From Escherichia coli (lineage in GTDB: Bacteria > Pseudomonadota > Gammaproteobacteria > Enterobacterales > Enterobacteriaceae), in the NCBI RefSeq assembly GCF_001677475.2, contig NZ_CP015229.1: a DNA stretch of 64,000 nucleotides; one strand, given 5' to 3'. Position 1 is the first letter of the stretch, and each line of letters begins with the position of its first letter. This document shows, piece by piece, positions 35,945 to 58,636 of this stretch. The notes beneath the pieces were generated by a model that saw only the letters and a list, made by a program, of their open reading frames with translations, ran no database searches and had not been told where the DNA came from. The position numbers were made by a program, and so were the translations under genes.

Positions 35945-38092
35945 TTACGCCAGTGCCGCTTCGCGCAGGCGAGTTTTCAACTTGTTGTACTCGTCAATCA
36001 CGTACTGCTCGGCGGCGCGCTGATCGGCGATCGGCTCGACGCGCACGGCGCAGTATTTGTATTCCGGCGTTTTCGTAATCGGGCTTAAGTTTTCGGTAAC
36101 CAGCTCGTTACAGGCACCAATCCACCACTGGTAGGTCATATAAATCGCCCCTTTGTTCGGACGATCGCTGACCTGCGCACGGGTGATAATTTTGCCTTTA
36201 CGCGAGTGCACCCAAACCAATGCCTCATCTTCAATACCCAGACGTTTGGCGTCTTCGGTATTGATTTGTGCGTAGCCAGGTTCATCAGCCAGCGCCGCCA
36301 GTGCCGCACAGTTACCGGTCATCGAACGGCAAGAGTAGTGACCAACTTCACGCACCGTTGACAGTACCATCGGATACTCGTCGGTGAGTTTGTCGATTGG
36401 CGCTACCCAGTCGCAGGTGAAGAACTGCGCCAGACCGTTCGGGGTATCAAACTTCTCTTTAAACAGATAAGAAGTCCCCTGATCGGCATCTGAAGTATCG
36501 CGGCAAGGCCACTGAATGAAGCCCAGTTCGCCCATTTTCTCGTAAGTCGCACCGTAGAAATCCGGGCACAGATGACGCAACTCATCCCAGATCTCCTGGG
36601 TGTTGTTGTAGTGCATCGGATAACCCATACGGGTGGCGATTTCACTGATGATTTGCCAGTCCGTTTTCAGATCCCATTTCGGTTCAACCGCTTTGAAGAA
36701 ACGCTGGAAGCCACGGTCAGCCGCAGTAAACACGCCTTCATGCTCGCCCCACGACGTTGACGGTAAAATAACATCCGCCGCCGACGCGGTTTTGGTCATA
36801 AAGATGTCCTGAACGATGACCAGTTCCAGATCTTCAAAGGCTTTACGTACTGCCGACAGCTCCGCGTCAGTTTGAAGCGGATCTTCGCCCATAATGTACG
36901 CGGCACGCACTTCACCATGCGCTGCGCGGTGCGGCAGCTCGCTGATGCGATAACCGGTATGAGCAGGCAGGCTTTCCACGCCCCAGGCTTTGGCGAATTT
37001 CTCGCGGTTAGCCGGATCTTTCACGTACTGGTATCCCGGATACGTATCCGGCAGCGCGCCCATATCGCAGGCACCCTGCACGTTGTTCTGACCACGAACC
37101 GGGTTTACACCCGCATGCGGCTTACCGAGGTTACCGGTCAGCATCGCGAGGCTGGTCAGAGAACGCACGGTTTCCACGCCCTGGTAGAACTGGGTTACAC
37201 CCATGCCCCACAGGATGGCGGCGCTTTTCGCCTGGGCATACATCCGTGCCGCCTGACGAATCTCACTGGCGCTGACGCCGGTGATATCTTCAACCGACTC
37301 CGGCGTGTAGCCTTCAACGATTTTACGATACTCTTCAAAGCCTTCTGTACGGGAAGCGACGAAAGCTTTGTCGTACAGGTTTTCTTCAATAATGACATGA
37401 CCCATCGCATTCAACAGCGCGATGTTCGAGCCGTTTTTCAGTGCAATGTGCATGTCAGCAATGCGCGCGGTTTCAATTTTGCGCGGATCGCAGACGATAA
37501 TTTTCGCCCCGTTACGTTTAGCGTTAATTACGTGGTTCGCCACGATTGGGTGGGAATCCGCCGGGTTGTACCCGAAAACGAACACTAAATCGGTATTATC
37601 AATTTCGTTAATAGCATTGCTCATTGCGCCATTACCGACCGATTGGTGCAGACCTGCAACCGATGGGCCGTGTCAGACACGAGCGCAGCAGTCAACGTTA
37701 TTGGTACCAATAACGGCGCGCGCAAATTTTTGCATTACATAGTTGGTTTCGTTACCCGTACCACGCGAGGAGCCGGTCGTCTGGATGGCATCCGGACCGT
37801 ACTTCTCTTTGATGGCGCTCAGGCGCTCGGCAACGTAATTCAGTGCCTCATCCCAGGAAACAGGTTCGAGTTTGCCGCCACGCTGGCGACGGATCATGGG
37901 GGTTTTCAGGCGCGGGGTCAGGATCTGGGTATCGTTAATGAAGTCCCAGCCATAATAACCCTTCAGACACAGGGTACCCTGGTTGGTTTTCCCCTGCGCT
38001 GCCTCCGCCCGGACGATTTTGCCGTTATCGACGACCAGGTTGATTTTGCAACCTGATGCGCAATAGGGGCAAACCGTGACGACTTTTTTCAT
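35945..38092 (-). CDS. fdhF: formate dehydrogenase H (selenoprotein; UGA at codon 140 decoded as selenocysteine)
   Basis: two same-frame ORFs (139 aa + 559 aa) separated only by TGA at 37673..37675; N-terminal CPYCASGCKINLVV 4Fe-4S motif; total 715 codons. Confidence 0.95.
37625..37672 (-). ncRNA. SECIS element (mRNA stem-loop directing SelB-dependent Sec insertion)
   Basis: sequence immediately 3-prime of the in-frame UGA (CACGGCCCAUCGGUUGCAGGUCUGCACCAAUCGGUCGG) can fold as a hairpin. Confidence 0.8.
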
Positions 38093-43337: not shown

Positions 43338-45323
43338 TTAATTTGGGGTTACGATATTCACCCACAAATCGAAATTATCCAGACAGGCAATAATTTCTTC
43401 CAGTTTCGCGCCATTGCCAATAATTTTGGCTTTCTTCGCTTTTACCAGATCCGCCATTTTGGCTTGTCCGGTCAGCACGGCGTGCAGATCTTCACGGCTA
43501 ATGTAGAAGGACGCATTGGCTTGCGGTTGCAGCGTTTTACGGTAGTTAAGCACGCTATCGTTCAGGGTCAGGTTGAGGTTATCGCCGTTACTCATATTGA
43601 AGTTCAGGCTGATGTTCTTCCCGGCGGCTTTTTCGCTATCGAGGCGAACAGCCATAAAGTCGAACAGCATTTCGACCGACATCCCGCGAATGGTATCCGG
43701 GGAACCGGTGGTGCCGTGGCTGAACTTATGTACCCCTTCGCGCAGCTCTTTCGCGCCAGTCAGGTAGAAACCGCGCCAGGTGGCTGACTCCGCCTGATAA
43801 CCAAGCTGTTCAAAGTTATTGGCTTGCAGATTCTTCGCCACCTGGTCGCCCGGATTGGCGGCAATCACCTGTTTCAGTAACTCTGCCGACCAGCGATAAT
43901 CTCCCTGCTTGTTTGCTTCTTGCGCCAGGCTGATGACGCGTGCGGAACCGCCCAACGCCTGTACATAACGTTTACCCATCTCCACCTGACCATACGGATG
44001 CAGGTTTGCCGGGTTACCGTCGTAATAGCCGAGGTAGAAGTTATATACCGCACGGGCGTTGTGGCTGACAGAACCGTAATAGCCACGGCTGGCCCAGTTA
44101 TTGGCAAGCGCAGGCGGCAGCTTAATCATGTCGCCGATTTCATTCATGGTGTAGCCCTGGTTTGCCAGGTGCAGGGTCTGGTCGTGAATGTACTTGATAG
44201 TATCGCGATATTTACCAATATAATCATTGATATGCTTATTGCCCCATACCGGCCAGGTGTGCGGCATAAACAGGACTTCCGCTTCGTTACCCCACATATC
44301 CAGCGTTTCGTTCAGGTACTCGGTCCACTTGTTGGTATCGCGGGTTTTCGCGCCGCGCAGAGTGTAGAAGTTGTGCAGGGTATGCGTGGCGTTCTCGGCG
44401 GTACACAGGGCTTTCAGGGCCGGAATATAGAAGTGCATTTCCGCTGGCGCTTCGCTGCCTGGGGTCATCAGGAAGTCAAACTCCAGGCCGTCGATAATCA
44501 TCTTCTCGCCAGTTCTGACGATCGTTTTGGTTGGCGCAATAATGCTTGGGTCACCGGTTGCCAGCGTCACGCCAAGGCCATTACCCACGTTACCCTGCGC
44601 GTTGTGCGGCAGTAACAGGCCGTAAGAGTAGAGCGCACGGCGGCTCATAATGTTACCCGCCAGTACGTTTTCACTGATGGCTTCGTCCATAAATCCAGCA
44701 GGGGCAATCACCTGCACTTTGCCCGATTTAACATCGGCTTCAGAGATAATACCTTTCACGCCACCATAGTGGTCAGTGTGGCTGTGGGTGTAGATAACCG
44801 CAACAATCGGTTTTTGCGGACGATGCTGGAAGTAAAGGTCAAGGGCGGCTTTTGCGGCAGGCGGCGTTACCAGCGGGTCGATAACAATAATGCCTTTCTC
44901 GCCTTCCACGAACGTAATGTTGGAGATGTCCTGACCACGCACCTGATACATTTTATCGGTGACTTTGAACAGGCCAGAAATACCGTTGATCTGTGACTGA
45001 CGCCACAGGCTGGGGTTTACGGTTTCCGGCGCAGCGGCATTAATATCAAATTTGTAATCGTCTGCGCGGTAGTAAACTTTACCGTTCGCATCACGCAGAA
45101 TACCTTCGTTCAGCAGCGGAGCGATAAATCCACGCTGGGCATCGTCAAAATCCTGACGATCGCTAAACGGTAATGATTTGGCGTAATTCTGATTAACCTG
45201 TTGCGTATATTGGGAGGCGGCTTTCGCTTCCTCTTTCGCGTAAGCGGTATTTACCATCATGCCGCTGGCGGCGGTTAACGCAATAACAATCCTGCTCAAA
45301 CGGAATAACCGAGAGTTATTCAT
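43338..45323 (-). CDS. yjcS: alkyl/aryl-sulfatase (metallo-beta-lactamase fold)
   Basis: 661 aa; signal peptide; HxHxDH zinc motif ([11 protein letters not shown]). Confidence 0.9.
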
Positions 45324-45575
45324 ATAAATCTCCATTTATCATTTGTGTCGTAAATATGTAATCCATGCAAAATACGTCATTTAAAGCTGGCGATATCATA
45401 ATTGGGAAATTGCGACTTTAATAAGTAGAAGTGTGAGCTGAACGCGCCATTTTATTAGGCATTTGTGCTGAAGAGGGAAAAGTACGCAAATTTATTATCT
45501 CTGTAAATAATATGAGGTGTTTTATATATTTATTATATATATTGTACTTCGGCAAATACTGAGCACAATTAATCA

Positions 45576-45893
45576 ATGCAACCGGTGTTTTTTATTAAAA
45601 AACGTACCGGAGCAATGGGCGGTCATGTCGCTGGCACCGCAGGATTCTGTGTTGCTGTGCCAGCCTTTTATTCATGGTCAATGAGTGAGGGGATTGATAA
45701 AGAAACCAGGTCGTCAGAGCGCACTGATTATCCGCATTACGCCAGTGAAGTTGCACTGGCTTTTGGTTCACGAGTGGTTGGCCTCGAACTGGCAAAAATG
45801 ATTGTGGATGCGTGGCTGGGCGCGCAGTACGAAGGCGGTCGTCATCAACAACGCGTGGAGGCGATTACGGCAATAGAGCAGCGGAGAAATTGA
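45576..45893 (+). CDS. hypothetical small protein at the yjcS/yjdP junction
   Basis: 105-aa ORF preceded by a very AT-rich 230-bp leader; no recognisable motif. Confidence 0.35.
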   Translation: MQPVFFIKKRTGAMGGHVAGTAGFCVAVPAFYSWSMSEGIDKETRSSERTDYPHYASEVALAFGSRVVGLELAKMIVDAWLGAQYEGGRHQQRVEAITAIEQRRN

Positions 45894-45961
45894 GATTCAT
45901 CCACTACTTGCATGGATGAGTAATGACTAATGTGGATAGAGTTTCTTTTTGAGGTTGGCTA

Positions 45962-46291
45962 ATGAAACGCTTTCCGCTATTTCTTTTATTCACCCTGCTC
46001 ACGCTGTCCACCGTTCCGGCCCAGGCCGATATTATCGACGACACCATTGGCAATATTCAGCAGGCGATTAACGACGCTTATAACCCTGACCGTGGGCGAG
46101 ACTATGAAGATTCGCACGACGACGGCTGGCAGCGTGAAGTGAGCGACGATCGGCGCAGACAATATGACGACCGCCGCCGCCAGTTTGAAGATCGCCGCAG
46201 GCAGCTGGACGATCGCCAGCGCCAGCTTGATCAGGAGCGTCGGCAACTGGAGGATGAAGAGCGGAGAATGGAAGATGAGTATGGGCGATGA
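45962..46291 (+). CDS. yjdP: secreted, Arg/Asp/Glu-rich repeat protein
   Basis: 109 aa; signal peptide; repeated DDRRRQ/RRQL units. Confidence 0.8.
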   Translation: MKRFPLFLLFTLLTLSTVPAQADIIDDTIGNIQQAINDAYNPDRGRDYEDSHDDGWQREVSDDRRRQYDDRRRQFEDRRRQLDDRQRQLDQERRQLEDEERRMEDEYGR

Positions 46292-46332
46292 GGTAGGCTC
46301 GGGTGAGGGGGCCAGCGAGCACATTCTCCCCA

Positions 46333-47091
46333 TCACGCCACCCCAATCTCCATCCCATCAAACCCCGCCTCAAACCCCGACGGCAGTGCGTTTTCCATCA
46401 GCCACGCATCAAACTGGTGGCTGATATGGGTCAGAATCACCCGTGGCGAGCGGATAACCTGATTCAGCGCAAGCACGGTATTTAAATCACAGTGATTACG
46501 CGGTGCATCCTCGCGCGGCGGGTGGCTGCAATCAATCACCATTACCTGCGGCTGATTATTGCGTAAAAATTTCAGCGTTTTTTCCGGCAAGCCAGCGGTG
46601 TCAGACAGCCACGCCACCCGGCTGTGTGCCGTTTCCAGCAGATAACCGAAGGTCAGTTTTGAGTGGTTGAGCGGCAGCGGCGTGACCTGTAATCCCTGCA
46701 AATCAAACATCACAAATGGCTCCACCGTGTGGCTGAAATCAAGCAGGCCCGGATGTTTAAACAGATCGTCGCAGCCCTGTTCATCCGGCGGGCCGTAGAT
46801 CGGGATCGAATCGCCCACGCCCCAGCGCAGCGGAAACAGCCCCTGCACGTGATCCATATGGTAGTGCGTCAGCAAAAACTGCTGGAACGATCCGGGCGAC
46901 CAGCGATCGGCGAGATCGTGCAGCCCGGCGTCGATCAGGGTGATCGCGTCGTTAAACTTCACGACGCCGCTGCATGGCTGGCGGCGATACTGCGGTGAGC
47001 GCCGCGCTCTGGCGCAGGCCGCGCACTCACAGCCCCATGCGGGAACGCCCTGTGCGCCGCCAGTGCCAGTAAGTGTGAGGGTCAGGCTCAT
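46333..47091 (-). CDS. phnP: phosphoribosyl cyclic phosphodiesterase (metallo-beta-lactamase)
   Basis: 252 aa; HxHxDH motif ([10 protein letters not shown]). Confidence 0.95.
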
Positions 47092-47092
47092 G

Positions 47093-47527
47093 TTACAGCG
47101 CCTTGGTGAAGCGGAAGTGGCTCTGCTCGTAGCCTTCGCGCAGATAGAAACGGTGCGCGTCGTGGCGCTTGACGTTGGTGGAAAGCTCGGTCATTTCGGC
47201 CCCGGCCTGGCGGGCTTCTTCTTCTGCCCATGCCAGTAATTTACTGCCGACATTCAGACCGCGCGCCTGCGGCATCACCACCAGTTCCTGAATTTCGCCG
47301 ATCCAGTTGACATGATGCAGATGAAACTGCAAATGCAGGCCGATCATGCCGACAACTTCGCCATCCAGCAGCGCCAGATGGTAGCGCATGTTCGGGTCGC
47401 GCAGGTTGGCGTTAAAGCCCACGCGAAACGCGTGGTGGTCAAACTCCGCCTGTTTTAGCTCACAAATCAGCGCGTAAACTGCGTCGGTATCGTACTGCGT
47501 GGCCGGGCGAAGCTCACAAGCAGGCAT
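47093..47527 (-). CDS. phnO: aminoalkylphosphonate N-acetyltransferase (GNAT)
   Basis: 144 aa GNAT fold. Confidence 0.95.
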
Positions 47528-48071
47528 GGTGTTTCTCCTTCTGATGAATCAGCGTCAGCAGCGTGTCGACCGACTGGCGCAGGCTGCCGTCATTATTGAG
47601 CGTATGGCAATCCTGAGGAGTATAGCGGGCGGCGCGCGCCAGCCGGGCGTTAATTTCACTGGCGTTTTCACGGCCACGGTTTTCCAGGCGCTGGCGCAGG
47701 ATCTCCGGCGAAACCTGTAAGCAAATGGGCAGCAGCGCCGATTGATAGCGCGCCCGCGCCTGCGGCAAATGTGCGCGTGAGCCGTTGACCACCACGTCAA
47801 ATCCAGCGTGCAGCCAGAGGTCAATCTCGACGCCGATGCCATAATACAGGCCGTTGGCGTGCCAGCTTAAGGCCAGAAGGTTCTGCCCCGCGCGGGTAAA
47901 AAACTCCTGCTCGCTCAGGGCGATATGGTTTTCACTTCCGGCGCTGGCGGCGCGCGTGATGTAGCGATGCGCTACCAGTAGCTGAGTTTGTTCCCGCTGG
48001 CGAAGTTCCGTCAACAGACTGTCTTTTCCGGAGCCAGAGGCCCCCATTAACCAAATCAGTTTTCCCGTCAT
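47514..48071 (-). CDS. phnN: ribose 1,5-bisphosphate phosphokinase
   Basis: 185 aa; P-loop GASGSGKDS. Confidence 0.95.
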
Positions 48072-49207
48072 CAGAACACCCTTTTCCCCTGACGCCAGAC
48101 GTGGTCGATGTGAATGTGATTGCCCTTGCGATGCGCCAGCACCAGGTCGGCGCGTTTACCCTCGCCAATCACCCCGCGATCCTGAAGATTCAGCGCCTGG
48201 GCCGGGTTTTTGGTCACCAGCTTCACCGCCTGCGGCAGCGTAAAGCGGTTGCTCTGGTCATCGGCGACGCGGAACGCCGCATCCAGCAGGCTGGCGGGGT
48301 AGTAGTCGGAAGAGAGGATATCCAGCAGGCCAAGCTGTGCCAGCTCACTTGCCGCCACGTTACCGGAGTGCGAACCGCCGCGCACGATATTCGGCGCGCC
48401 CATCAGCACGTTCATACCATGCTTGCGTGAGGCTTCTGCGGCTTCGAACGTGGTAGGAAATTCGGCGATCACGCTACCAAGCTGGTGGGATTCGGCAACG
48501 TGGGCGTGCGTGGCGTCATCGTGGCTGGCGAGCGCAATGTGTCGCGCGCGGCACATTGCGGCGATGGTTTCGCGATTTGGCTGCGACCAGCGTGCGGCGA
48601 GCGCCAATTGCTCTTCTTCGTACTGCTGCATCTGCGCATCGGTGAGGGAATATTTGCCCTGATAATATTCGCGATACTTCTCGCGATTGGCGAACTGGCG
48701 CTGGCCTGGCGAGTGGTCCATCAGCGATACCAGCGTCACCGGTTCGCGCTGCACCAGTTTTTCAAACAGCGGCAGCGTGGTGTGATGCGGCAGTTCGCAG
48801 CGCAGGTGCAGGCGGTGCTCGGCGCGGTTGACGCCGCGTTTCTGCGTCTCTTCGATGGCGTTGATCATCTTCTCCAGATTCTCCAGCCGATCGCCGCCGT
48901 CGCGCACATCACCAATCGCCACGGCGTCCAGTACGGTGGTGATGCCGCTTGCCACCATCAGCGCGTCGTGGCTGCTCATCGCCGAATGGGCGGGCCAGTC
49001 GACTTTCGGGCGCGGGGTGAAGAATTTATCGAGGTTGTCGGTATGCAGCTCAATCAGGCCGGGTAGTAGCCAGCCACCTTCGCCGTCCATCGCTTCCGGC
49101 TGGCGGCTCTGGCTTTCGGCAAAGGCGCGAATTTCGCCATCCTGTACTTCCAGTGAACCGTGCACCACTTCGTTTTCCAGCACCAGTTTGACGTTATTGA
49201 TAATCAT
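48071..49207 (-). CDS. phnM: amidohydrolase-family RPnTP diphosphatase
   Basis: 378 aa amidohydrolase fold. Confidence 0.95.
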
Positions 49208-49884
49208 GAAGAGGCTCCCATCGGGTGCAGGCGGTCGGCGACGTCATTGCGTACGGCTTCGTCATGGAAGATACCGACGATGGCTGCGCCACGGGCTTTA
49301 GCTTCGAGAATCAGTTCCACCACCGCGGCGCTGTTTTTGGCGTCCAGCGAGGCGGTAGGTTCGTCGAGCAGCAGAATGGGGTAGTCGACGATAAAGCCAC
49401 GGGCGATGTTGACGCGCTGCTGTTCGCCGCCGGAGAAGGTCGATGGTGCAAGGTGCCACAGGCGTTCAGGCACGTTCAGGCGCGTCAGTAATCGGGCGGC
49501 TTTAGCGGCGCAGGCTTCACGCGGTACGCCGGTATCGAGCAGAGGCTGCATCACCACTTCCAGTGCCGAAATACGCGGGATGACGCGCAGAAACTGGCTC
49601 ACCCAGCCGATGGTGGTTTTGCGGATCTCCACCACTTTGCGCGCTGGCGCGGTGACCAGGTCTACCCATTCCTCACCGTGTTTGATCTGGATTTGCCCTT
49701 CGTCGGGCAGATAGTTGGCGTACAGCGAGCGCAGCAGGGTTGATTTTCCGCTGCCGGAGTGGCCGTGAAGCACCACGCATTCGCCTGCGTTGACGGTGAG
49801 CGAGGCACGTTGTAAGACGTGCAGGCGCACGCCGTTTTGCTGGTGCAGGATGAAGGTTTTACTGACGTTTTGTACGTTAATCAT
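49204..49884 (-). CDS. phnL: C-P lyase system ABC-type ATPase
   Basis: 226 aa from [11 protein letters not shown]; Walker [10 protein letters not shown]. Confidence 0.95.
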
Positions 49885-49904
49885 TTTTCGCCTCGTGGTT
49901 CGGG

Positions 49905-49990
49905 TGTCGGATGTGACGCTGACGCGTCTTATCCGACCTACGGGGAGCGCATTTGTCGGCCGGATAAGGCGTTTACGCCGTATCCGGTAC
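49905..49990. repeat. REP element cluster between phnL and phnK
   Basis: paired palindromes TGTCGGATGTGACGCTGACGCGTCTTATCCGACC and GTCGGCCGGATAAGGCGTTTACGCCGTATCCGG. Confidence 0.75.
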
Positions 49991-49994
49991 TGGC

Positions 49995-50753
49995 TCAATT
50001 CTGCAAAACCGATGACACCAGCAACTGGGTGTACGGGTGGTGCGGGTCGTCGAGCACGCGGTCGGTTAACCCACTCTCCACCACTTGCCCCTGTTTCATC
50101 ACCAGCAAACGGTCCGCCAGCAGGCGGGCGACGCCCAGATCGTGGGTGACAATCACCACCGCCAGATTCAGCTCCACCACCAGACCGCGCAGCAGATCGA
50201 GCAGGCGCGCCTGTACCGATACATCCAGCCCGCCGGTCGGTTCATCCATAAACACCAGCTTCGGATGCGTCACCAGGTTACGGGCAATCTGCAAACGTTG
50301 CTGCATGCCGCCGGAAAAGGTGGTCGGCAGGTCGTCGATCCGGTTGGCGGGAATCTCCACCTCTTCCAGCCACTTCTGCGCGGTGGCGCGGATGTCGCCG
50401 TAATGACGCGCCCCGGTTGCCATCAAGCGTTCGCCGATGTTGCCGCCCGCCGATACCTGACGGCGCAGGCCGTCGAGCGGATGCTGATGCACCACGCCCC
50501 ATTCGGTGCGCAGCAGGCGACGGCGGTCGGCCTCGCTCATGCCATAGAGGGAACGGTTTTCATAGTGAATCTCCCCCTGCTGCGGCGTCAGGCGCGCGGA
50601 GATTGATTTCAGCAGCGTGGTCTTCCCGGAGCCGGATTCCCCGACAATGCCTAGCACTTCCCCCGGCCATAAATCAAAAGAGACATCGCTAAAGCCTTTG
50701 CCCGGCGCGTAAAGGTGGGTCAGGTTATTGATCGAAAGTAACGGTTGATTCAT
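49995..50753 (-). CDS. phnK: C-P lyase system ABC-type ATPase
   Basis: 252 aa from [11 protein letters not shown]; Walker [10 protein letters not shown]. Confidence 0.95.
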
Positions 50754-51595
50754 TGGTTTTTTGCCTCGCTCTGTTGGCGGCAATAATCGGTATCGGAGCA
50801 GACAAACATGCGGTTTCCGGCGTCATCCAGCACCACTTCATCAAGATAGCTGTGGGTCGATCCGCAGATGGCGCACGGCTCATCCCACTGCTGGACGGTG
50901 AACGGGTGATCGTCGAAATCGAGGCTTTCCACGCGGGTAAACGGCGGCACCGCATAGATGCGCTTCTCACGCCCTGCGCCGAACAGTTGCAGGGCGGGCA
51001 TCATGTCCATTTTCGGGTTATCGAATTTCGGGATCGGCGACGGGTCCATCACGTAGCGCCCGTTCACCTTCACCGGATAGGCGTAGGTGGTGGCGATATG
51101 ACCGAAGCGGGCGATATCTTCATACAGCTTCACCTGCATCACGCCATACTCCTCCAGCGCGTGCATGGTGCGGGTCTCCGTTTCTCGCGGCTCGATAAAG
51201 CGCAGCGGTTCCGGGATCGGCACCTGGAAGATAACTATCTGATCTTCGGTCAGCGGCGTTTCGGGGATACGGTGGCGCGTCTGGATAAGCGTCGCATCAT
51301 CCGTGCGTTCGGTGGTGTTCACCCCGGTCACGCGCTTAAAGAAGTTGCGAATCGACACGGCGTTGGTGGTGTCATCCGCGCCCTGGTCAATCACCTTCAA
51401 CACGTCGCTTTCGCCAATCACGCTGGCGGTGAGCTGTATGCCGCCGGTTCCCCAGCCGTACGGCATCGGCATCTCGCGCCCGCCAAACGGCACCTGATAA
51501 CCGGGGATCGCTACCGCTTTTAAGATGGCGCGGCGGATCATGCGTTTGGTCTGCTCGTCGAGGTACGCAAAGTTGTAGCCGCTCAGATTAGCCAT
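50750..51595 (-). CDS. phnJ: C-P lyase catalytic radical-SAM-like subunit
   Basis: 281 aa from MANLSGYNFAYLDEQTKRM; C-terminal CxxCxxxxxC cysteine cluster. Confidence 0.95.
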   Translation of the reverse strand: MANLSGYNFAYLDEQTKRMIRRAILKAVAIPGYQVPFGGREMPMPYGWGTGGIQLTASVIGESDVLKVIDQGADDTTNAVSIRNFFKRVTGVNTTERTDDATLIQTRHRIPETPLTEDQIVIFQVPIPEPLRFIEPRETETRTMHALEEYGVMQVKLYEDIARFGHIATTYAYPVKVNGRYVMDPSPIPKFDNPKMDMMPALQLFGAGREKRIYAVPPFTRVESLDFDDHPFTVQQWDEPCAICGSTHSYLDEVVLDDAGNRMFVCSDTDYCRQQSEAKNQ

Positions 51596-52652
51596 GGTTC
51601 TGCTCCTGTTGCAGACGTTTGAGTAGCTCCAGTTCAGCCTGGAAATCGACGTAGTGCGGGAGTTTGAGGTGCGAGACAAAGCCTGCAGCTTCGACGTTGT
51701 CGGCATGCGCCAGCACGAACTCTTCATCCTGCGCCGGGCCTGTCGCGTGCTCGCCGTACTCCGGGGCTTGTAGAGCGCGGTCAACCAGCGCCATCGCCAT
51801 CGCTTTGCGCTCGCTCATGCCGAACACCAGCCCGTAGCCGCGCGTGAAGTGCGGCGGCTCATCCGGCGGGTCGATAAAACCGTTGACCATTTCACATTCG
51901 GTCATCAGCAGTTCGCCGACGTTCACCGCAAATCCCAGCTCTTCCGGCACAATCGACACGTCGATATAGCCGCTGCGGATTTCGCCTGCGAACGGATGAT
52001 TGCGTCCGTAACCACGCTGGGTGGAGTAGGCTAGCGCCAGCAAATAGCCTTCGTCGCCGCGCATTAATTGTTGCAGGCGGGAGGAGCGTGAGCAGGGGTA
52101 AACCGGCGGCGTGCGGGTGATGTCGTCCGGCTGTGCGCCGCTATCTTCTTCAAACTTCGCCAGCCCCTGACGCGCCAGCAGGCTGAAAACGTGCGGCGAC
52201 GGCTGTTGTTCGCTGTCGGCTGTGGTCAGCGTCGGCGCTTCGCCGTTTGCCAGCAGGGTGAAATCGAGCAGGCGATGGGTGTAGTCGTAGGTTGGGCCAA
52301 GCAGCTGGCCGCCGGGAATATCTTTATAAACCGCTGAAATACGCCGTTCGAGACGCATCTCCGTGGTGTCGAGCGGCTCGCTTACCGCGAGCTTCGCCAG
52401 CGTGGTGCGGTAGGCGCGTAGCAGGAAAATCGCTTCAACGTTATCGCCGCTGGCCTGTTTCAGCGCCAGCGCAGCCAGTTCGCGGTCGGCAATGCCGCCT
52501 TCGGTCATCACGCGATCTACCGCGAGGTTAAGCTGCTGTTCAATCTGGGCGACGCTCAGTTCAGGCAAATCGGTATCGCCCCGGCGTCGGCTCTCTTGCA
52601 GGGCGTGGGCGGCGTCGATCGCCTTCTCGCCCCCTTTCACGGCAACGTACAT
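51588..52652 (-). CDS. phnI: C-P lyase core complex subunit
   Basis: 354 aa from [13 protein letters not shown]. Confidence 0.95.
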   Translation of the reverse strand: MYVAVKGGEKAIDAAHALQESRRRGDTDLPELSVAQIEQQLNLAVDRVMTEGGIADRELAALALKQASGDNVEAIFLLRAYRTTLAKLAVSEPLDTTEMRLERRISAVYKDIPGGQLLGPTYDYTHRLLDFTLLANGEAPTLTTADSEQQPSPHVFSLLARQGLAKFEEDSGAQPDDITRTPPVYPCSRSSRLQQLMRGDEGYLLALAYSTQRGYGRNHPFAGEIRSGYIDVSIVPEELGFAVNVGELLMTECEMVNGFIDPPDEPPHFTRGYGLVFGMSERKAMAMALVDRALQAPEYGEHATGPAQDEEFVLAHADNVEAAGFVSHLKLPHYVDFQAELELLKRLQQEQNHG

Positions 52653-53236
52653 CAGCACACCTCCACATGAGTGGTTCGCGGGATAGCCAGCAGGCGCTCG
52701 CCGCAGGTCAGGATCAGGTCGATGCCGAGCGGGAACGGGTGCGGGCGCTCGGTGAGTTCGTGCAGAATGCACTCTGGCAGCTGCGGAGCGATCATTCGTT
52801 CTTCGGCAATACCCGCGCCAGTAAGGCGCAGCATGCGCCCGCCGCTCAGGCTGACGACCTGTAAAATCAGCGTCGCGCCCGCTTCCGGCGCAACAGCGGT
52901 GCCGCTGGAAAGAGCGTTGAGCTGTTCGCTGGAAATCGCCTCATCCGTTACCGCGAAGGTCGCCAGTTCCGGTTGATTGACCAGAGGCGCGTTGGTATGA
53001 AAACGCAGGCTCTGGCTGACGATATCGTTACTTAATGGCGCGGAAAGCCACACCGGCGTGTCGTTATCGGCCAGCGTCAGCAGCACGCTGGTGGTGGCGA
53101 TATTCAGCGGCTGCCAGCCGCGTTTGAGCTGATGCAGGGCGACAATCACGCCCGGCTCGCTCATGGCCTTTAACAGGCGACGAAAACTGTGCTGGGCATC
53201 CTGCACGGGAAGCATAAAAGCGGTTTCCAGGGTCAT
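52652..53236 (-). CDS. phnH: C-P lyase core complex subunit
   Basis: 194 aa. Confidence 0.95.
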
Positions 53237-53685
53237 GCGTTGTCTCCGCGAACCATCGTAAAGAAGTCGACCCGGCTGGCGTTCACTTCGGCCTGGCGTG
53301 CGGCAATGCGTGCCATACGGTCAGCATCCAGCGGGGCAATAAGGGTTTCTGATAAGTTTTGAAAGTGGCGAGATTGCTGCATCAGCGCGTCAATCAGCGC
53401 GCAGCGTTCGGCATGCTGTTTATCACGCCCCAGCACCCAGCTGTAGCCGAGCGTGCCGTCAGTCAGGCGCACGGCGGCGCGGGTCAGCGTGGCGTCGCCG
53501 GCAAAAAAGCGTTCGCCGGTGCCGCCCATCCGCGCCTGAATCTGCACCAGGCCAGTTTCGGCGGCGCGGATTACTTCATAGTCGGCGGTGATGTTCAGCG
53601 CGTTCAGGCGGGCTGCCAGTTCAGCCGGTTGGCTGTGCGCCAGTACGGACATCCAGTGCTGGCGGGTCGCGGTATCTGCGTGCAT
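53233..53685 (-). CDS. phnG: C-P lyase core complex subunit
   Basis: 150 aa. Confidence 0.95.
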
Positions 53686-54411
53686 TCAGTGCTCCATAGT
53701 GAATTCAATCATGTCGGCGCGCGTCAGGCTGACGGAGTACTCCGCCGGGCTGCTTTCACCGTCACGGTGGTTAAGGGTGCGCACGCACAGCAGCGGCGAC
53801 ATATTCGGGATTTCAAGACGCTGGCACTCTTTGGCCTGGGCGCGGCGGGCGCTGATCCGCGTCTGGCTGCGGCGCAGCGCAATCCCCGTTTGCTCGCGCA
53901 GAAAATCGTGCAGCGAGCCGCTGTCGAAGCGTTGCAGCGTCGGCCAGAGAGTAAGGTCCGCGAAGTAGTGGTCGATTAAACAGAGCGCGACGCCGTTGAC
54001 CCGACGCAGGGTGCGCAGGTGGATGACGTTCTCGCCCTCGGTTATCCCCAGCGCGTCAGCGACGTGACCGGAGGCGGGGCGCAGCACCGACAGCAGTTTT
54101 TCGCTGGTGGGATGGCTGCCCTGGTCCAGCAGGTTCTGGCTAAAACGCGCCTGGGCGTTGAGCGGGTAATCGAACGGGCGCATCAGCACCAGCACGCCGA
54201 CGCCCTGACGGCGTTGTACCCAGCCTTTTTCCACCAGTTGGTCGATGGCGCGGCGCAGGGTGTGGCGATTCACCTCAAAGCGCGCCGCCAGTTGCTGCTC
54301 GGCGGGAAGATAGTCGCCGCAGCGATAGTGTTGACGAAGCTCCTGCTCAAGTTTTGCGGCTATCTCCTGATAGCGTGTTGGGTAGCTGGTCGGATGTGTA
54401 GACAAGTGCAT
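53686..54411 (-). CDS. phnF: GntR-family transcriptional repressor of the phn operon
   Basis: 241 aa; N-terminal GntR HTH, UTRA effector domain. Confidence 0.9.
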   Translation of the reverse strand: MHLSTHPTSYPTRYQEIAAKLEQELRQHYRCGDYLPAEQQLAARFEVNRHTLRRAIDQLVEKGWVQRRQGVGVLVLMRPFDYPLNAQARFSQNLLDQGSHPTSEKLLSVLRPASGHVADALGITEGENVIHLRTLRRVNGVALCLIDHYFADLTLWPTLQRFDSGSLHDFLREQTGIALRRSQTRISARRAQAKECQRLEIPNMSPLLCVRTLNHRDGESSPAEYSVSLTRADMIEFTMEH

Positions 54412-54431
54412 AGCTATCAATGCCTCGCTTA

Positions 54432-55211
54432 TCAGATAAAGTGCTTACGCAACCGTTGAGAGAGGAAATCCAGCAGGCTGACCGTGACGATAATCAGCAC
54501 CATCAGGGCGCAGGTTTGCTGGAACTGGAAACCGCGAATCGCTTCCCACAGCGTGACGCCAATTCCGCCTGCGCCGACCATGCCTACGACGGTCGCCGAA
54601 CGGACGTTGGATTCGAAGCGATAGAGAGAATAGGAAATCAGCAGCGGCATCACTTGCGGCAGCACGCCGTAGAGGATCTCTTCGAGCTTGTTGGCACCAG
54701 TGGCGCGAATACCTTCCACCGGGCCGGGTTCAATTGCTTCTACCGCTTCGGAAAGCAGCTTGGAGAGCACGCCGGTGGTGTGGATAAACAGCGCCAGCAC
54801 GCCAGCGAACGGGCCAAGGCCGACGGCGACCACGAACAGCATGGCGAAGACCATTTCGTTAATGGCGCGGCAGGCGTCCATCAGGCGGCGTACGGGCTGG
54901 TAAACCCACCACGGCACCAGGTTTTCGGCGCTCATCAGGCCAAAGGGGATGGAGAGAACCACCGCCAGCGCGGTGCCCCAGACGGCGATTTGCAGCGTGA
55001 CGGCCATTTCGGTGAGGTAATCCTGCCACTGGCTGAAATCGGGCGGGAAGAAGTCGGCGGCGAACGTCGCCATGTTGCCGCCGTCTTTAATCAGCGTGAG
55101 CGGGGCCATTTCCGCGCCCTGCCACGAGACGACCAGCACGGCGAGAACAATGGCCCAGCTCAGAAGCGAGAACCAGCTGCGCTTGGGTGGGGCGATGGTG
55201 ATGGTTTGCAT
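54432..55211 (-). CDS. phnE: phosphonate ABC transporter permease (apparently intact)
   Basis: 259-aa uninterrupted ORF with ABC permease TM pattern. Confidence 0.9.
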
Positions 55212-55233
55212 ATATTGCTCCGTTTAATGTTTT

Positions 55234-55325
55234 CTCCCTCTCCCTGTGGGAGAGGGCCGGGGTGAGGGCATCAGCGTGCGCATTTCCCCCTCACCCTAAC
55301 CCTCTCCCTCAAGGGAGAGGGGACC
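55234..55325. repeat. GC-rich intergenic palindromic repeat cluster between phnE and phnD
   Basis: nested inverted repeats CTCTCCCTGTGGGAGAG, GGGTGAGGG...CCCTCACCC, CCCTCTCCCTCAAGGGAGAGGGG. Confidence 0.6.
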
Positions 55326-55336
55326 GATCGAGCACA

Positions 55337-56353
55337 TTACTGCACCGCTTTACTCACCGAACTCATCGCGCTTAACGCGTTGTTCAGGCGGTCCAGGTCA
55401 TCCAGTTGCGCCTGAATCTCGGTGGTTTTCGCCAGTTTGTCCTGCTCATTCAGCCCTTTATTGCCTTTCACACCCTGCATCTCTTTAAACAGCGCGAGCT
55501 GGCGAATCGGCACCAGTTGCAGGTCGCTGGAGGCGCGGAACGGGGCCCAGCCCAGGCGCTCCAGCACCGCTTTCTCTTCCGGCGTTTTGCCGTAGTTCAT
55601 AAAGAAGTCGTAGATCTTGTCTTTGGTGGTTTCGGAAAGATTTTTGCGCCAGACGATCGGATCGCCTGGGATCAGCGGCGATTTCCAGATCACCTTCAGT
55701 TCTTTGAGCTTCTCCGGTGCGGAGGTTTTCAGCTTGTCGAGGTTTTCGGTGTTGTTGGTCGCCACATCCACTTGTTTGTTGGCGACGGCCAGCGCGTTGG
55801 TTTCATGCCCGGCGTTGACGGTGCGCTTGAAGTCGCTGGCGGAAATATTGTTTTTGGCGAAGACGTAGTAGCCGGGGACGAGGAAGCCAGAGGTGGAGTT
55901 AGGATCGCCATTGCCAAAGGTGAGATCTTTACGCTTCGCCAGCAGATCGTTCAGGTTGTTGATCGGACTGTCTTTGTTGACGATCAACACGCTCCAGTAA
56001 CCCGGCGATCCATCCGCCGCGACCGTCTGGGCGAAGACCTGACCGTTGGCGCGATCCACCGCTTCCATCGCCGACAGATTGCCGTACCAGGCGATATCCA
56101 CTTTGTTGAAGCGCATTCCCTGGATAATGCCCGCGTAGTCCGGGGCAAAGAAGGCGTTGACCTTTACGCCCAGCTTCTTCTCCATATCCTGTAAGAACGG
56201 CGTCCATTGCGGTTTCAGGTTTTGCTGTGATTCCGTTGAAATAATGCCGAAATTCAGCGCCTTTTCCTGCTCTTCGGCGTGCGCCGGGCTTAACAGGGTG
56301 CTGAGGCTGAACATGCTGGTGAAGGCCAGCGAGGCAATTATCTTAGCGTTCAT
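55337..56353 (-). CDS. phnD: phosphonate ABC transporter periplasmic binding protein
   Basis: 338 aa, signal peptide. Confidence 0.95.
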   Translation of the reverse strand: MNAKIIASLAFTSMFSLSTLLSPAHAEEQEKALNFGIISTESQQNLKPQWTPFLQDMEKKLGVKVNAFFAPDYAGIIQGMRFNKVDIAWYGNLSAMEAVDRANGQVFAQTVAADGSPGYWSVLIVNKDSPINNLNDLLAKRKDLTFGNGDPNSTSGFLVPGYYVFAKNNISASDFKRTVNAGHETNALAVANKQVDVATNNTENLDKLKTSAPEKLKELKVIWKSPLIPGDPIVWRKNLSETTKDKIYDFFMNYGKTPEEKAVLERLGWAPFRASSDLQLVPIRQLALFKEMQGVKGNKGLNEQDKLAKTTEIQAQLDDLDRLNNALSAMSSVSKAVQ

Positions 56354-56377
56354 TCGTTTTCCTCAATGATGGGGATG

Positions 56378-57166
56378 TCAGGCAGCTTTCGCGTTTTCTT
56401 CGACGCGGTTGATGCTGCGGTAGAGATGGTCAAAACGTTCGTTATCAAACTGTTGGCTGCTGCCGTCGTAGAAGACGTGCCCCTGGCGCAGGGCGACGAT
56501 GCGTTCGCAGTAGCGCAGGGCGTAATCCACCTGATGCAGCGTGACGACCACGGTAATGCCGTCGTTCTGGTTAATGTCGCGCAGGGTGTCCATCACGATG
56601 CGCGCCGATTCCGGGTCCAGCGAGGCGATGGGTTCATCGGCCAGAATTACCTTCGCCTGCTGCATCAGCGCGCGGGCAATCGCCACACGCTGCTGTTGCC
56701 CGCCGGAGAGGGTGGAAACGCGCTGATGGGCAAAATGCACCATGCCAACGCGGGTCAGCGCCTGTAACGCGCGCTGTTTCTGCTCGCGGGTGAACCAGCT
56801 AAAACAGGTGCGCCAGAATGGCGTGCTGCCGAGCGCGCCAATCAGCACGTTCTCCAGTACGCTCAGGCGATTCACCAGGTTGAATTGTTGGAAGATGTAG
56901 CCGGTGTTGGCGCGGCTTTTGCGGATATCGCGGGCCAGGCGGCCTTCGCGCTGGACTGTGCGGCCCAGCAGCTCGATATGGCTACCGGCAGATTTATCGC
57001 CGGTAATCAAACCGCTTAAGTGACGTAAAAGGGTGGATTTGCCGGAACCCGACGGCCCAAGCAGAGCCACCATTTCACCGTGATGAATGTTCAGATCAAC
57101 CGCGTGCAGCGCCTGATGCTGATTGAAGGTTTTGGCGAGCTTCTCGACACGGATAATCGTTTGCAT
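56378..57166 (-). CDS. phnC: phosphonate ABC transporter ATPase
   Basis: 262 aa; Walker [13 protein letters not shown] signature LSGGQQQR. Confidence 0.95.
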
Positions 57167-57199
57167 GATGCAGCCTCCCTAAAAAAGTGGCTCCATCGT

Positions 57200-57245
57200 G
57201 GCGGATTATTGTGACGATTTTGTTAACTAAAAGTGACTAACGGAT
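57200..57245 (-). promoter_or_regulatory. putative PhoB binding region (Pho box) of the phnC promoter
   Basis: minus strand TTAGTCAC...AATCGTCACAAT: two CTGTCAY-like direct repeats about 11 bp apart, 35-80 bp upstream of phnC. Confidence 0.5.
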
Positions 57246-57298
57246 GAAGAGTTAACGAGATTTCGATGACAGTGCGGGAGGGCGGCCCTCCCGGCGGG

Positions 57299-57742
57299 TT
57301 AGTGCGTTGGTTGTTGTTTGACGACATTAATCATCCACGGTACGCCAAATTTATCGGTGACTTTGCCGAAGCCATGCGCCCAGAAAGTTTCCTGCCAGGC
57401 CATTTCGATTTTTCCGTTAGCGGCAAGGTTGTCAAACCAGCGTTTTCCTTCTTCGACCTGTTGCGAATCGAGCACCAGCGTAAAGCCGGAGTAGCTGGCT
57501 TTTCCTGACGGTATAGCATCGCTCATCATGATATCGCTTCCGGCAATGCGCACATTGGCGTGGGCGATGGCGGTATCGGGAAATTGCATTCCGGAAGGGC
57601 AGTTCTCGGCGCTGTCCTGCGCTGATTTTGGCATTTCGCCGAAGCTGATTTTATAGAGCAGTTCAGCGCCCAACGTACGTTGATAATAAGCAATTGCGTC
57701 GGCACAGTTACCGGCAAAAGAGAGGTAGGGACTTAACGGCAT
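57299..57742 (-). CDS. yjdN: glyoxalase/bleomycin-resistance fold protein
   Basis: 147 aa; synteny downstream of phnC promoter region. Confidence 0.85.
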   Translation of the reverse strand: MPLSPYLSFAGNCADAIAYYQRTLGAELLYKISFGEMPKSAQDSAENCPSGMQFPDTAIAHANVRIAGSDIMMSDAIPSGKASYSGFTLVLDSQQVEEGKRWFDNLAANGKIEMAWQETFWAHGFGKVTDKFGVPWMINVVKQQPTH

Positions 57743-57807
57743 GATGGTGACCTCAGTTAAGAGAAGCCAGTTAAGTGTAGTTCGAAATTTATACAGATGA
57801 GAGGGAA

Positions 57808-57883
57808 GCCTGATAAGACGCGGTCAGCGTCGCATCAGGCTGTCGGCATCGTTGCCGGATGCGGCGCGAGCGCCTTATCCGGC
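57808..57883. repeat. BIME (two REP elements) between yjdN and yjdM
   Basis: GCCTGATAAGACGCGGTCAGCGTCGCATCAGGC and GCCGGATGCGGCGCGAGCGCCTTATCCGGC. Confidence 0.8.
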
Positions 57884-57901
57884 TTACCGATCACAATACA
57901 A

Positions 57902-58237
57902 TCAGTTCTTTTTCACAAACTCAGATTTCAGTTTCATCGGACCAAAACCGTCGATTTTGCAATCGATGTTATGGTCGCCTTCAACCAGGCGGATGTTTTT
58001 CACTTTGGTGCCAATTTTCAGCATCGAAGAGCTACCTTTCACCTTCAGATCTTTAATGATGGTAACGCTGTCGCCGTCAGCCAGCAGATTGCCATTAGCA
58101 TCTTTAACGATCAGCTCGTCGCTTTCCTGTGCAGGTTCTGCGTCGTTCCATTCGTAGGCACATTCCGGGCAGATGTACATGCCGTTATCTTCGTAGGTGT
58201 ATTCGGAGTTGCATTTTGGGCAGTGTGGTAATGACAT
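57902..58237 (-). CDS. yjdM: zinc-ribbon protein YjdM (PhnA-like)
   Basis: 111 aa from [30 protein letters not shown], CxxC...CxxC zinc ribbon; ORF-track ORF starts at an upstream Met. Confidence 0.9.
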
Positions 58238-58636
58238 GTGGATTTCCTCAAAAGTCAGCAGGGCAAAAGCGCCAAAAAACGGCAGATTGCCGAAAAAGGC
58301 CGCAATTATACACAAAATCCCTGAGTTTGTCGGGGGTACTGCTGATTTTAGACGACGATCGTTTTCATTTGAAAGGAAACGCAAAAAGAAAATAATCTTT
58401 TTGCCTCCATTTATTATTTAAGATAAGGTTAATGCTCTACTTGTTCTTTTTTTAATTCAAATGATATTTTTATCTTTCTGACGTTTTAAACGTATCGGAA
58501 GATGTTATTTATTTTAATAAAAAAACACTCTAAATATAAAATTATTTCTTGCAGTAATTATAAAAGCCGAAAACAGAACTCAAAAACAATCTGGCTAAAT
58601 AAAAGTAACAAAATTTGCTTTAAGGAAGAATTTTCT

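Follow-up and report, generated by a model that had tools for sequence, protein, structure and literature searches.

The phn operon of Escherichia coli acts by an established mechanism, in which expression is induced by PhoB, phosphonates are imported by PhnCDE, and the C-P bond is cleaved by PhnGHIJKLM together with PhnN, PhnP and PhnO. The closest known system to the locus described here is the functional operon of E. coli B and of most natural isolates, as for example strain 042, and a functional phnE has been described for the vast majority of isolates (PMC6469041). According to the same study, K-12 is cryptic through an 8-bp GCTGGCGT insertion at nucleotides 407-414 of the phnE ORF, and Pi is also taken up through PhnCDE (PMC6469041). 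The first-pass annotation of the present locus had described the K-12 allele as cryptic through a short duplication, which agrees with that publication and with the RefSeq K-12 record, where phnE (b4583) is marked as a pseudogene.

For the permease itself, no structure of PhnE was found in the PDB copy searched. Its nearest solved relative is MetI, the permease of the methionine importer MetNI (PDB 3DHW/6CVL), which was matched over residues 125-254 with an E-value of 6e-6. Both proteins share BPD_transp_1, the permease fold of type I ABC importers, while the homology is only distant and the substrate and the binding protein differ. Based on this relative, a PhnE dimer associated with two PhnC subunits would be expected by analogy.

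In the window, i.e. the whole stretch of 64,000 nucleotides that was analysed, all fourteen genes from phnC to phnP, reported as present by the first-pass annotation, were found colinear with the cryptic operon of K-12 and in the same order as in E. coli 042 (Table 1). A comparison of the 13 K-12 Phn proteins other than PhnE with the window by tblastn resulted in gapless alignments, which covered 100% of each query with 95.7-100% identity. Each of the corresponding 13 genes comprises a start codon and a stop codon with no internal stop, and each of the 14 products passed a curated NCBIfam or Pfam cut-off, with TIGR03293, TIGR03292, PF05861 and PF06007 supporting the products of phnG to phnJ. 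The full-length PhnP shows 97.6% identity to its K-12 counterpart, and the annotated PhnP lengths differ in the comparison with E. coli 042 (256 vs 252 aa). In PhnJ, the essential residues G32, C241, C244, C266 and C272, which represent the glycyl-radical site and the radical-SAM cysteines, are all kept.

The description of the gene junctions as overlapping was borne out for seven of the 13 junctions (G/H by 4 nt, H/I by 1, I/J by 8, J/K by 4, L/M by 4, M/N by 1 and N/O by 14), while it did not hold for the remaining ones. These comprise four gaps of 20-125 nt (C/D 24 nt, D/E 125, E/F 20 and K/L 110, the last computed from the phnL start annotated in K-12), the abutting genes phnF and phnG, and a 1-nt gap between phnO and phnP.

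Table 1. Coordinates of the phn operon, its elements and neighbouring features in the window.
Feature	Position	Strand	Details
phnCDEFGHIJKLMNOP operon	46333-57166	-	14/14 genes, K-12 order, full length
33-nt PhoB-box region	57211-57243	-	
PhoB-binding motif GTTAACAAAATCGTCACA	57210-57227	-	upstream of phnC; promoter alignment
phnC, transporter ATPase	56378-57166	-	NF007438, 608 bits (cut-off 365); 98.9% aa identity to K-12
phnD, periplasmic phosphonate-binding protein	55337-56353	-	TIGR03431, 376 bits (cut-off 261); 99.7% aa identity to K-12
phnD-phnE spacer	55212-55336	-	125 nt; GC-rich nested palindromic repeat element; alignment with K-12
phnE, phosphonate ABC transporter permease	54432-55211	-	259-aa ORF, ATG start, 0 internal stops
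8-bp tandem tract GCTGGCGT GCTGGCGc	54791-54806	-	ORF nt 406-421; 2 copies, in frame, ON
phnF, GntR-family repressor	53686-54411	-	NF007486, 519 bits (cut-off 363); 100% aa identity to K-12
phnG, phnH, phnI, phnJ (C-P lyase core complex)	53233-53685, 52652-53236, 51588-52652, 50750-51595	-	96.4-99.4% aa identity to K-12
phnK, phnL, phnM	49995-50753, 49204-49884, 48071-49207	-	above NCBIfam equivalog cut-offs
phnN, phnO, phnP	47514-48071, 47093-47527, 46333-47091	-	above NCBIfam equivalog cut-offs; phnK-phnP products 95.7-100% aa identity to K-12, full length, 0 internal stops
Antisense ORF, 281 aa (rejected as a gene)	54420-55265	+	
yjcS, alkyl sulfatase gene	43338-45335	-	
Truncated rpiB	45576-45893	+	105-aa ORF
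yjdN-yjdM spacer	57743-57904		1 REP/naRNA4 copy at 57807-57884 (Rfam RF02564)
Second naRNA4/REP copy	24589-24660	+	Rfam gathering-score match
sRNA STnc630	63552-63717	+	Rfam gathering-score match
sRNA SraL	17197-17337	-	Rfam gathering-score match
SECIS_2, selenocysteine insertion element	37626-37680	-	Rfam gathering-score match; presumably the fdhF SECIS

The earlier reading of phnE as a single 259-aa ORF was likewise confirmed, with phnC and phnD adjoining on the same strand. Since the ATG is preceded by a GGAG at 7 nt and by a TAA in the same frame at 5 codons, it is the sole plausible start of the gene. The product matched positions 8-251 of the 252 positions of the PhnE equivalog profile TIGR01097 with 311.3 bits (E = 4.5e-93; curated cut-off 216.7 bits) and contained the PF00528 (BPD_transp_1) domain with 91.8 bits compared to a cut-off of 26.4. 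Its amino-acid sequence is 100% identical to WP_001193496.1, which carries the PGAP label 'phosphonate ABC transporter, permease protein PhnE' and is annotated in E. coli 042 and ECCNB12-2. Compared to K-12, phnE showed 26 nucleotide differences in 780 positions, and only one of the amino acids differed: removal of the 8 bp from the K-12 gene restores a protein of 259 aa that is distinguished from the window PhnE solely by V21I. The overlapping ORF on the opposite strand was rejected as a gene, as it gave no Pfam match at E <= 1. Its GC content peaks at codon position 1 (0.755) and is not high at position 3, while the sense phnE shows a GC3 of 0.781; since the complement of a genuine gene would show this pattern, the antisense ORF is almost certainly spurious.

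An alignment of phnE with K-12 MG1655 (NC_000913.3), which had been proposed for counting the 8-bp copies, revealed two copies in the window and three in K-12. The tract reads GTTC GCTGGCGT GCTGGCGc TG in the window, compared to GTTC GCTGGCGT GCTGGCGT GCTGGCGc TG in K-12, where the additional copy causes the frameshift and the OFF state. ORF nucleotide 406 is the first position of the unit in both sequences, and unit and position agree with the published insertion (PMC6469041). While the raw frame of K-12 phnE is out of register after approximately residue 140 and then stops, the window gene stays in frame, as its tract comprises two copies instead of the inactivating three. A blastn comparison of the whole operon showed these 8 bp to be the sole indel within the coding sequence relative to K-12. 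A frameshift, named beforehand by the first-pass annotation as the observation that would speak against an intact operon, was present neither in phnE nor in any other phn gene on realignment. Tandem Repeats Finder reported nothing for phnE at a minimum score of 30, which can be explained by the two-copy 8-bp tract being too short, and the tract was therefore defined by alignment.

The frequency of the two alleles was determined with a 111-nt K-12 segment across the three-copy tract as the query, for which matches were obtained in 4,944 records of complete E. coli genomes. The 1,000 records with an identity of at least 99% and the 9 records between 95% and 99% were read as three-copy, while 3,086 records between 90% and 95% and 849 records between 80% and 90% were read as two-copy. 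The assignment of the two lower bands follows from the sampled full-length rows, all of which span 103 nt and thus comprise an 8-nt gap. Accordingly, 3,935 of the 4,944 records (approximately 80%) carry two copies and 1,009 (approximately 20%) carry three, although laboratory derivatives of K-12, among them MC4100 and S17-1, raise the latter share. The three-copy class also comprises isolates from humans, chickens, cattle and wastewater. In 1,000 of the 1,009 three-copy records, the flanks differ from K-12 by at most one mismatch, whereas the two-copy records show from 0 to 4 or more. A restriction of three copies to flanks identical to K-12 would be too strong a statement, since the band of at least 99% tolerates one mismatch per 111 nt.

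Concerning the origin of the locus, the best identity among 5,426 complete RefSeq E. coli genomes amounted to 98.3% over the 1.1-kb phnE region, 97.6% over the 16 kb of the phn region (44000-60000) and 97.2% over positions 1-24000, which include the housekeeping genes uvrA and dnaB. Since the identity over these two long segments does not exceed 97.2-97.6%, housekeeping genes included, the strain belongs to a divergent, poorly sampled Escherichia lineage that is unrepresented among the complete genomes. An exact 50-nt phnE pattern had no match in the GTDB species-representative genomes, and the genome of the window is therefore not among these representatives. Positions 44514-51071 (6,558 nt) of the window are 100% identical to contig ABOXPT010000005.1 of NCBI assembly GCA_033692315.1, and the index lists this contig in 3 samples. 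Judged from its alleles, the locus resembles a mosaic: ECCNB12-2 matches the promoter and the alleles of PhnC and PhnH, while 042 matches the phnD-phnE spacer and the neighbourhood of yjcS and truncated rpiB.

In this neighbourhood, the als operon is absent and yjcS abuts instead, an arrangement identical in E. coli 042, in which PGAP labels the rpiB remnant as 'RpiB/LacA/LacB family sugar-phosphate isomerase'. K-12, unlike the window, comprises an intact rpiB-als region. A variation in the copy number of a REP array was observed on the other side of the operon, where the yjdN-yjdM spacer of K-12 (15743-16399 of the compared K-12 segment) contains about 5 tandem REP copies compared to the single copy in the window.

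Relative to K-12, the 13 genes other than phnE showed 417 nucleotide differences and 45 amino-acid differences. Together with the values for phnE, the low number of amino-acid changes compared to the many nucleotide changes across all 14 genes fits purifying selection and an operon in use. The missense differences include 8 in PhnN and 7 in PhnH. The two replacements of glycine by an acidic residue in PhnI, G98E and G264D, are common to 042 and ECCNB12-2, and many other amino-acid replacements relative to K-12 are likewise found in these two strains. Apart from such allelic SNPs, no differences separate the window from the functional operon of the E. coli 042 type, which shares the two-copy tract and an identical PhnE.

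The spacer between phnD and phnE contains a palindrome of CCCTCTCCC..GGGAGAGGG around GGGTGAGGGG..CCCTCACCCC, and the corresponding RNA hairpin showed a calculated minimum free energy of -77.6 kcal/mol (z = -7.6). The same element is found in E. coli 042, while K-12 comprises an unrelated REP-like element in its place and ECCNB12-2 a third variant of 64 nt. Since a 1.1-kb query including the spacer gave a median of 3 hits in each genome, the element is probably a dispersed repeat, and it resembles 'box C'. Based on its predicted folding, the hairpin could lower the expression of phnE and the downstream genes, although the identical element is present in E. coli 042. By analogy to the REP at malE-malF, the element may set the ratio of phnD to phnE expression.

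Upstream of phnC, the window motif GTTAACAAAATCGTCACA is identical in 16 of 18 positions to ATTAACCAAATCGTCACA, the motif instance determined by PhoB ChIP-seq in K-12 (PMC10294691). In that strain, the RNA-seq read counts of phnC decreased from 32,470 in the wild type to 13 in the delta-phoB mutant (PMC10294691). The PhoB-box region showed three SNPs compared to both K-12 and 042, two of them within the 18-nt motif; the CGTCACA half-site is unchanged, and the left half-site is narrowly missed by a C-to-A SNP. Among the complete E. coli records, 263 carry this promoter haplotype with an identity of at least 99%. Among five PhoB-regulated promoters tested in K-12, the phnC Pho box showed the lowest affinity (PMC4447250), and since the box is thus already weak in K-12, the two motif SNPs are kept as a caveat on expression. 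The regulator genes phoBR lie outside the window.

Altogether, the phnCDEFGHIJKLMNOP operon of the window is very probably the ordinary, functional one of E. coli, and the other readings were weighed against this one. In K-12, phnE reportedly undergoes reversible phase variation, for which Iqbal 2004 is cited in PMC6469041. Applied to the present strain, phnE would be a reversible contingency locus captured in its ON phase, whose two copies may slip to three and thereby generate Phn- subpopulations, so that its intact state would not be fixed, a possible but rather doubtful explanation. The tract is still there as an intragenic tandem repeat with 15 of 16 nt repeated and with a unit of 8 bp that is not a multiple of 3, both alleles occur among complete E. 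coli in the proportions given above, and the reversible switching of the tract, including reversion by slippage, is cited from Makino 1991 and Iqbal 2004 (PMC6469041). However, two copies represent a poor substrate for slippage, in line with the empty result of Tandem Repeats Finder, and the near confinement of three copies to K-12-like flanks suggests inheritance within K-12-like lineages and laboratory derivatives over frequent independent switching. That the two-copy state itself is an artefact of sequencing or assembly is extremely unlikely: while miscalls of short tandem repeats can occur in principle, a tract of 16 nt is trivial on any sequencing platform, two copies are the norm of the population, and the neighbouring 6.5 kb of the operon agree completely with the contig listed in 3 samples.

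An operon that is intact and yet poorly expressed or phenotypically silent, due to the variant PhoB site, the hairpin acting as an attenuator or the missense changes, would be compatible with the SNPs in the PhoB-bound region, the low affinity of the Pho box, the stable phnD-phnE hairpin and the divergence of the lineage. We consider it improbable, since the promoter haplotype is shared by many complete records, the CGTCACA half-site is intact with the C-to-A SNP outside the left half-site, the same hairpin is present in E. coli 042, and the strong synonymous excess over all 14 genes argues for use. It is also hardly to be expected that the operon of this lineage is wired unlike that of K-12, with the variant PhoB site altering the onset of expression and a stronger hairpin in place of the REP altering the ratio of PhnD to the permease and the C-P lyase, or, more broadly, that the OFF alleles reflect a true contingency locus of the population instead of a K-12 laboratory quirk.

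Returning to the ordinary functional operon as the preferred reading, it is reasonable to predict from the genotype that the strain is Phn+ without prior mutation. Since phnE is in frame, the strain should grow on phosphonates such as methylphosphonate as the sole P source without selection of revertants. Under phosphate starvation, PhoB would activate the phnC promoter, periplasmic phosphonate would be bound by PhnD and imported by the PhnC/PhnE ABC importer, and PhnGHIJKLM with PhnN, PhnP and PhnO would cleave the C-P bond via ribosyl-phosphonate intermediates with recycling of the ribose-phosphate. Gene content, reading frames, repeat copy number, family membership and allele frequency were read directly from the sequences; for expression, phosphonate transport and the growth phenotype, the above is what we infer from the genes present.

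The intact phnE of the window should therefore be annotated as a gene and not as a pseudogene, and it represents the already known, ordinary state of E. coli. Since the two-copy allele is the usual one, there is nothing special about phnE in this strain. The population count adds modest context, namely that the OFF allele, at a share of complete records raised by laboratory derivatives, resides mostly on K-12-like flanks. The strain is predicted to be able to use phosphonates, and an uptake of Pi via PhnCDE is possible. For the biology of the species this matters little: K-12 is the exception, and this strain carries the standard Phn+ genotype.
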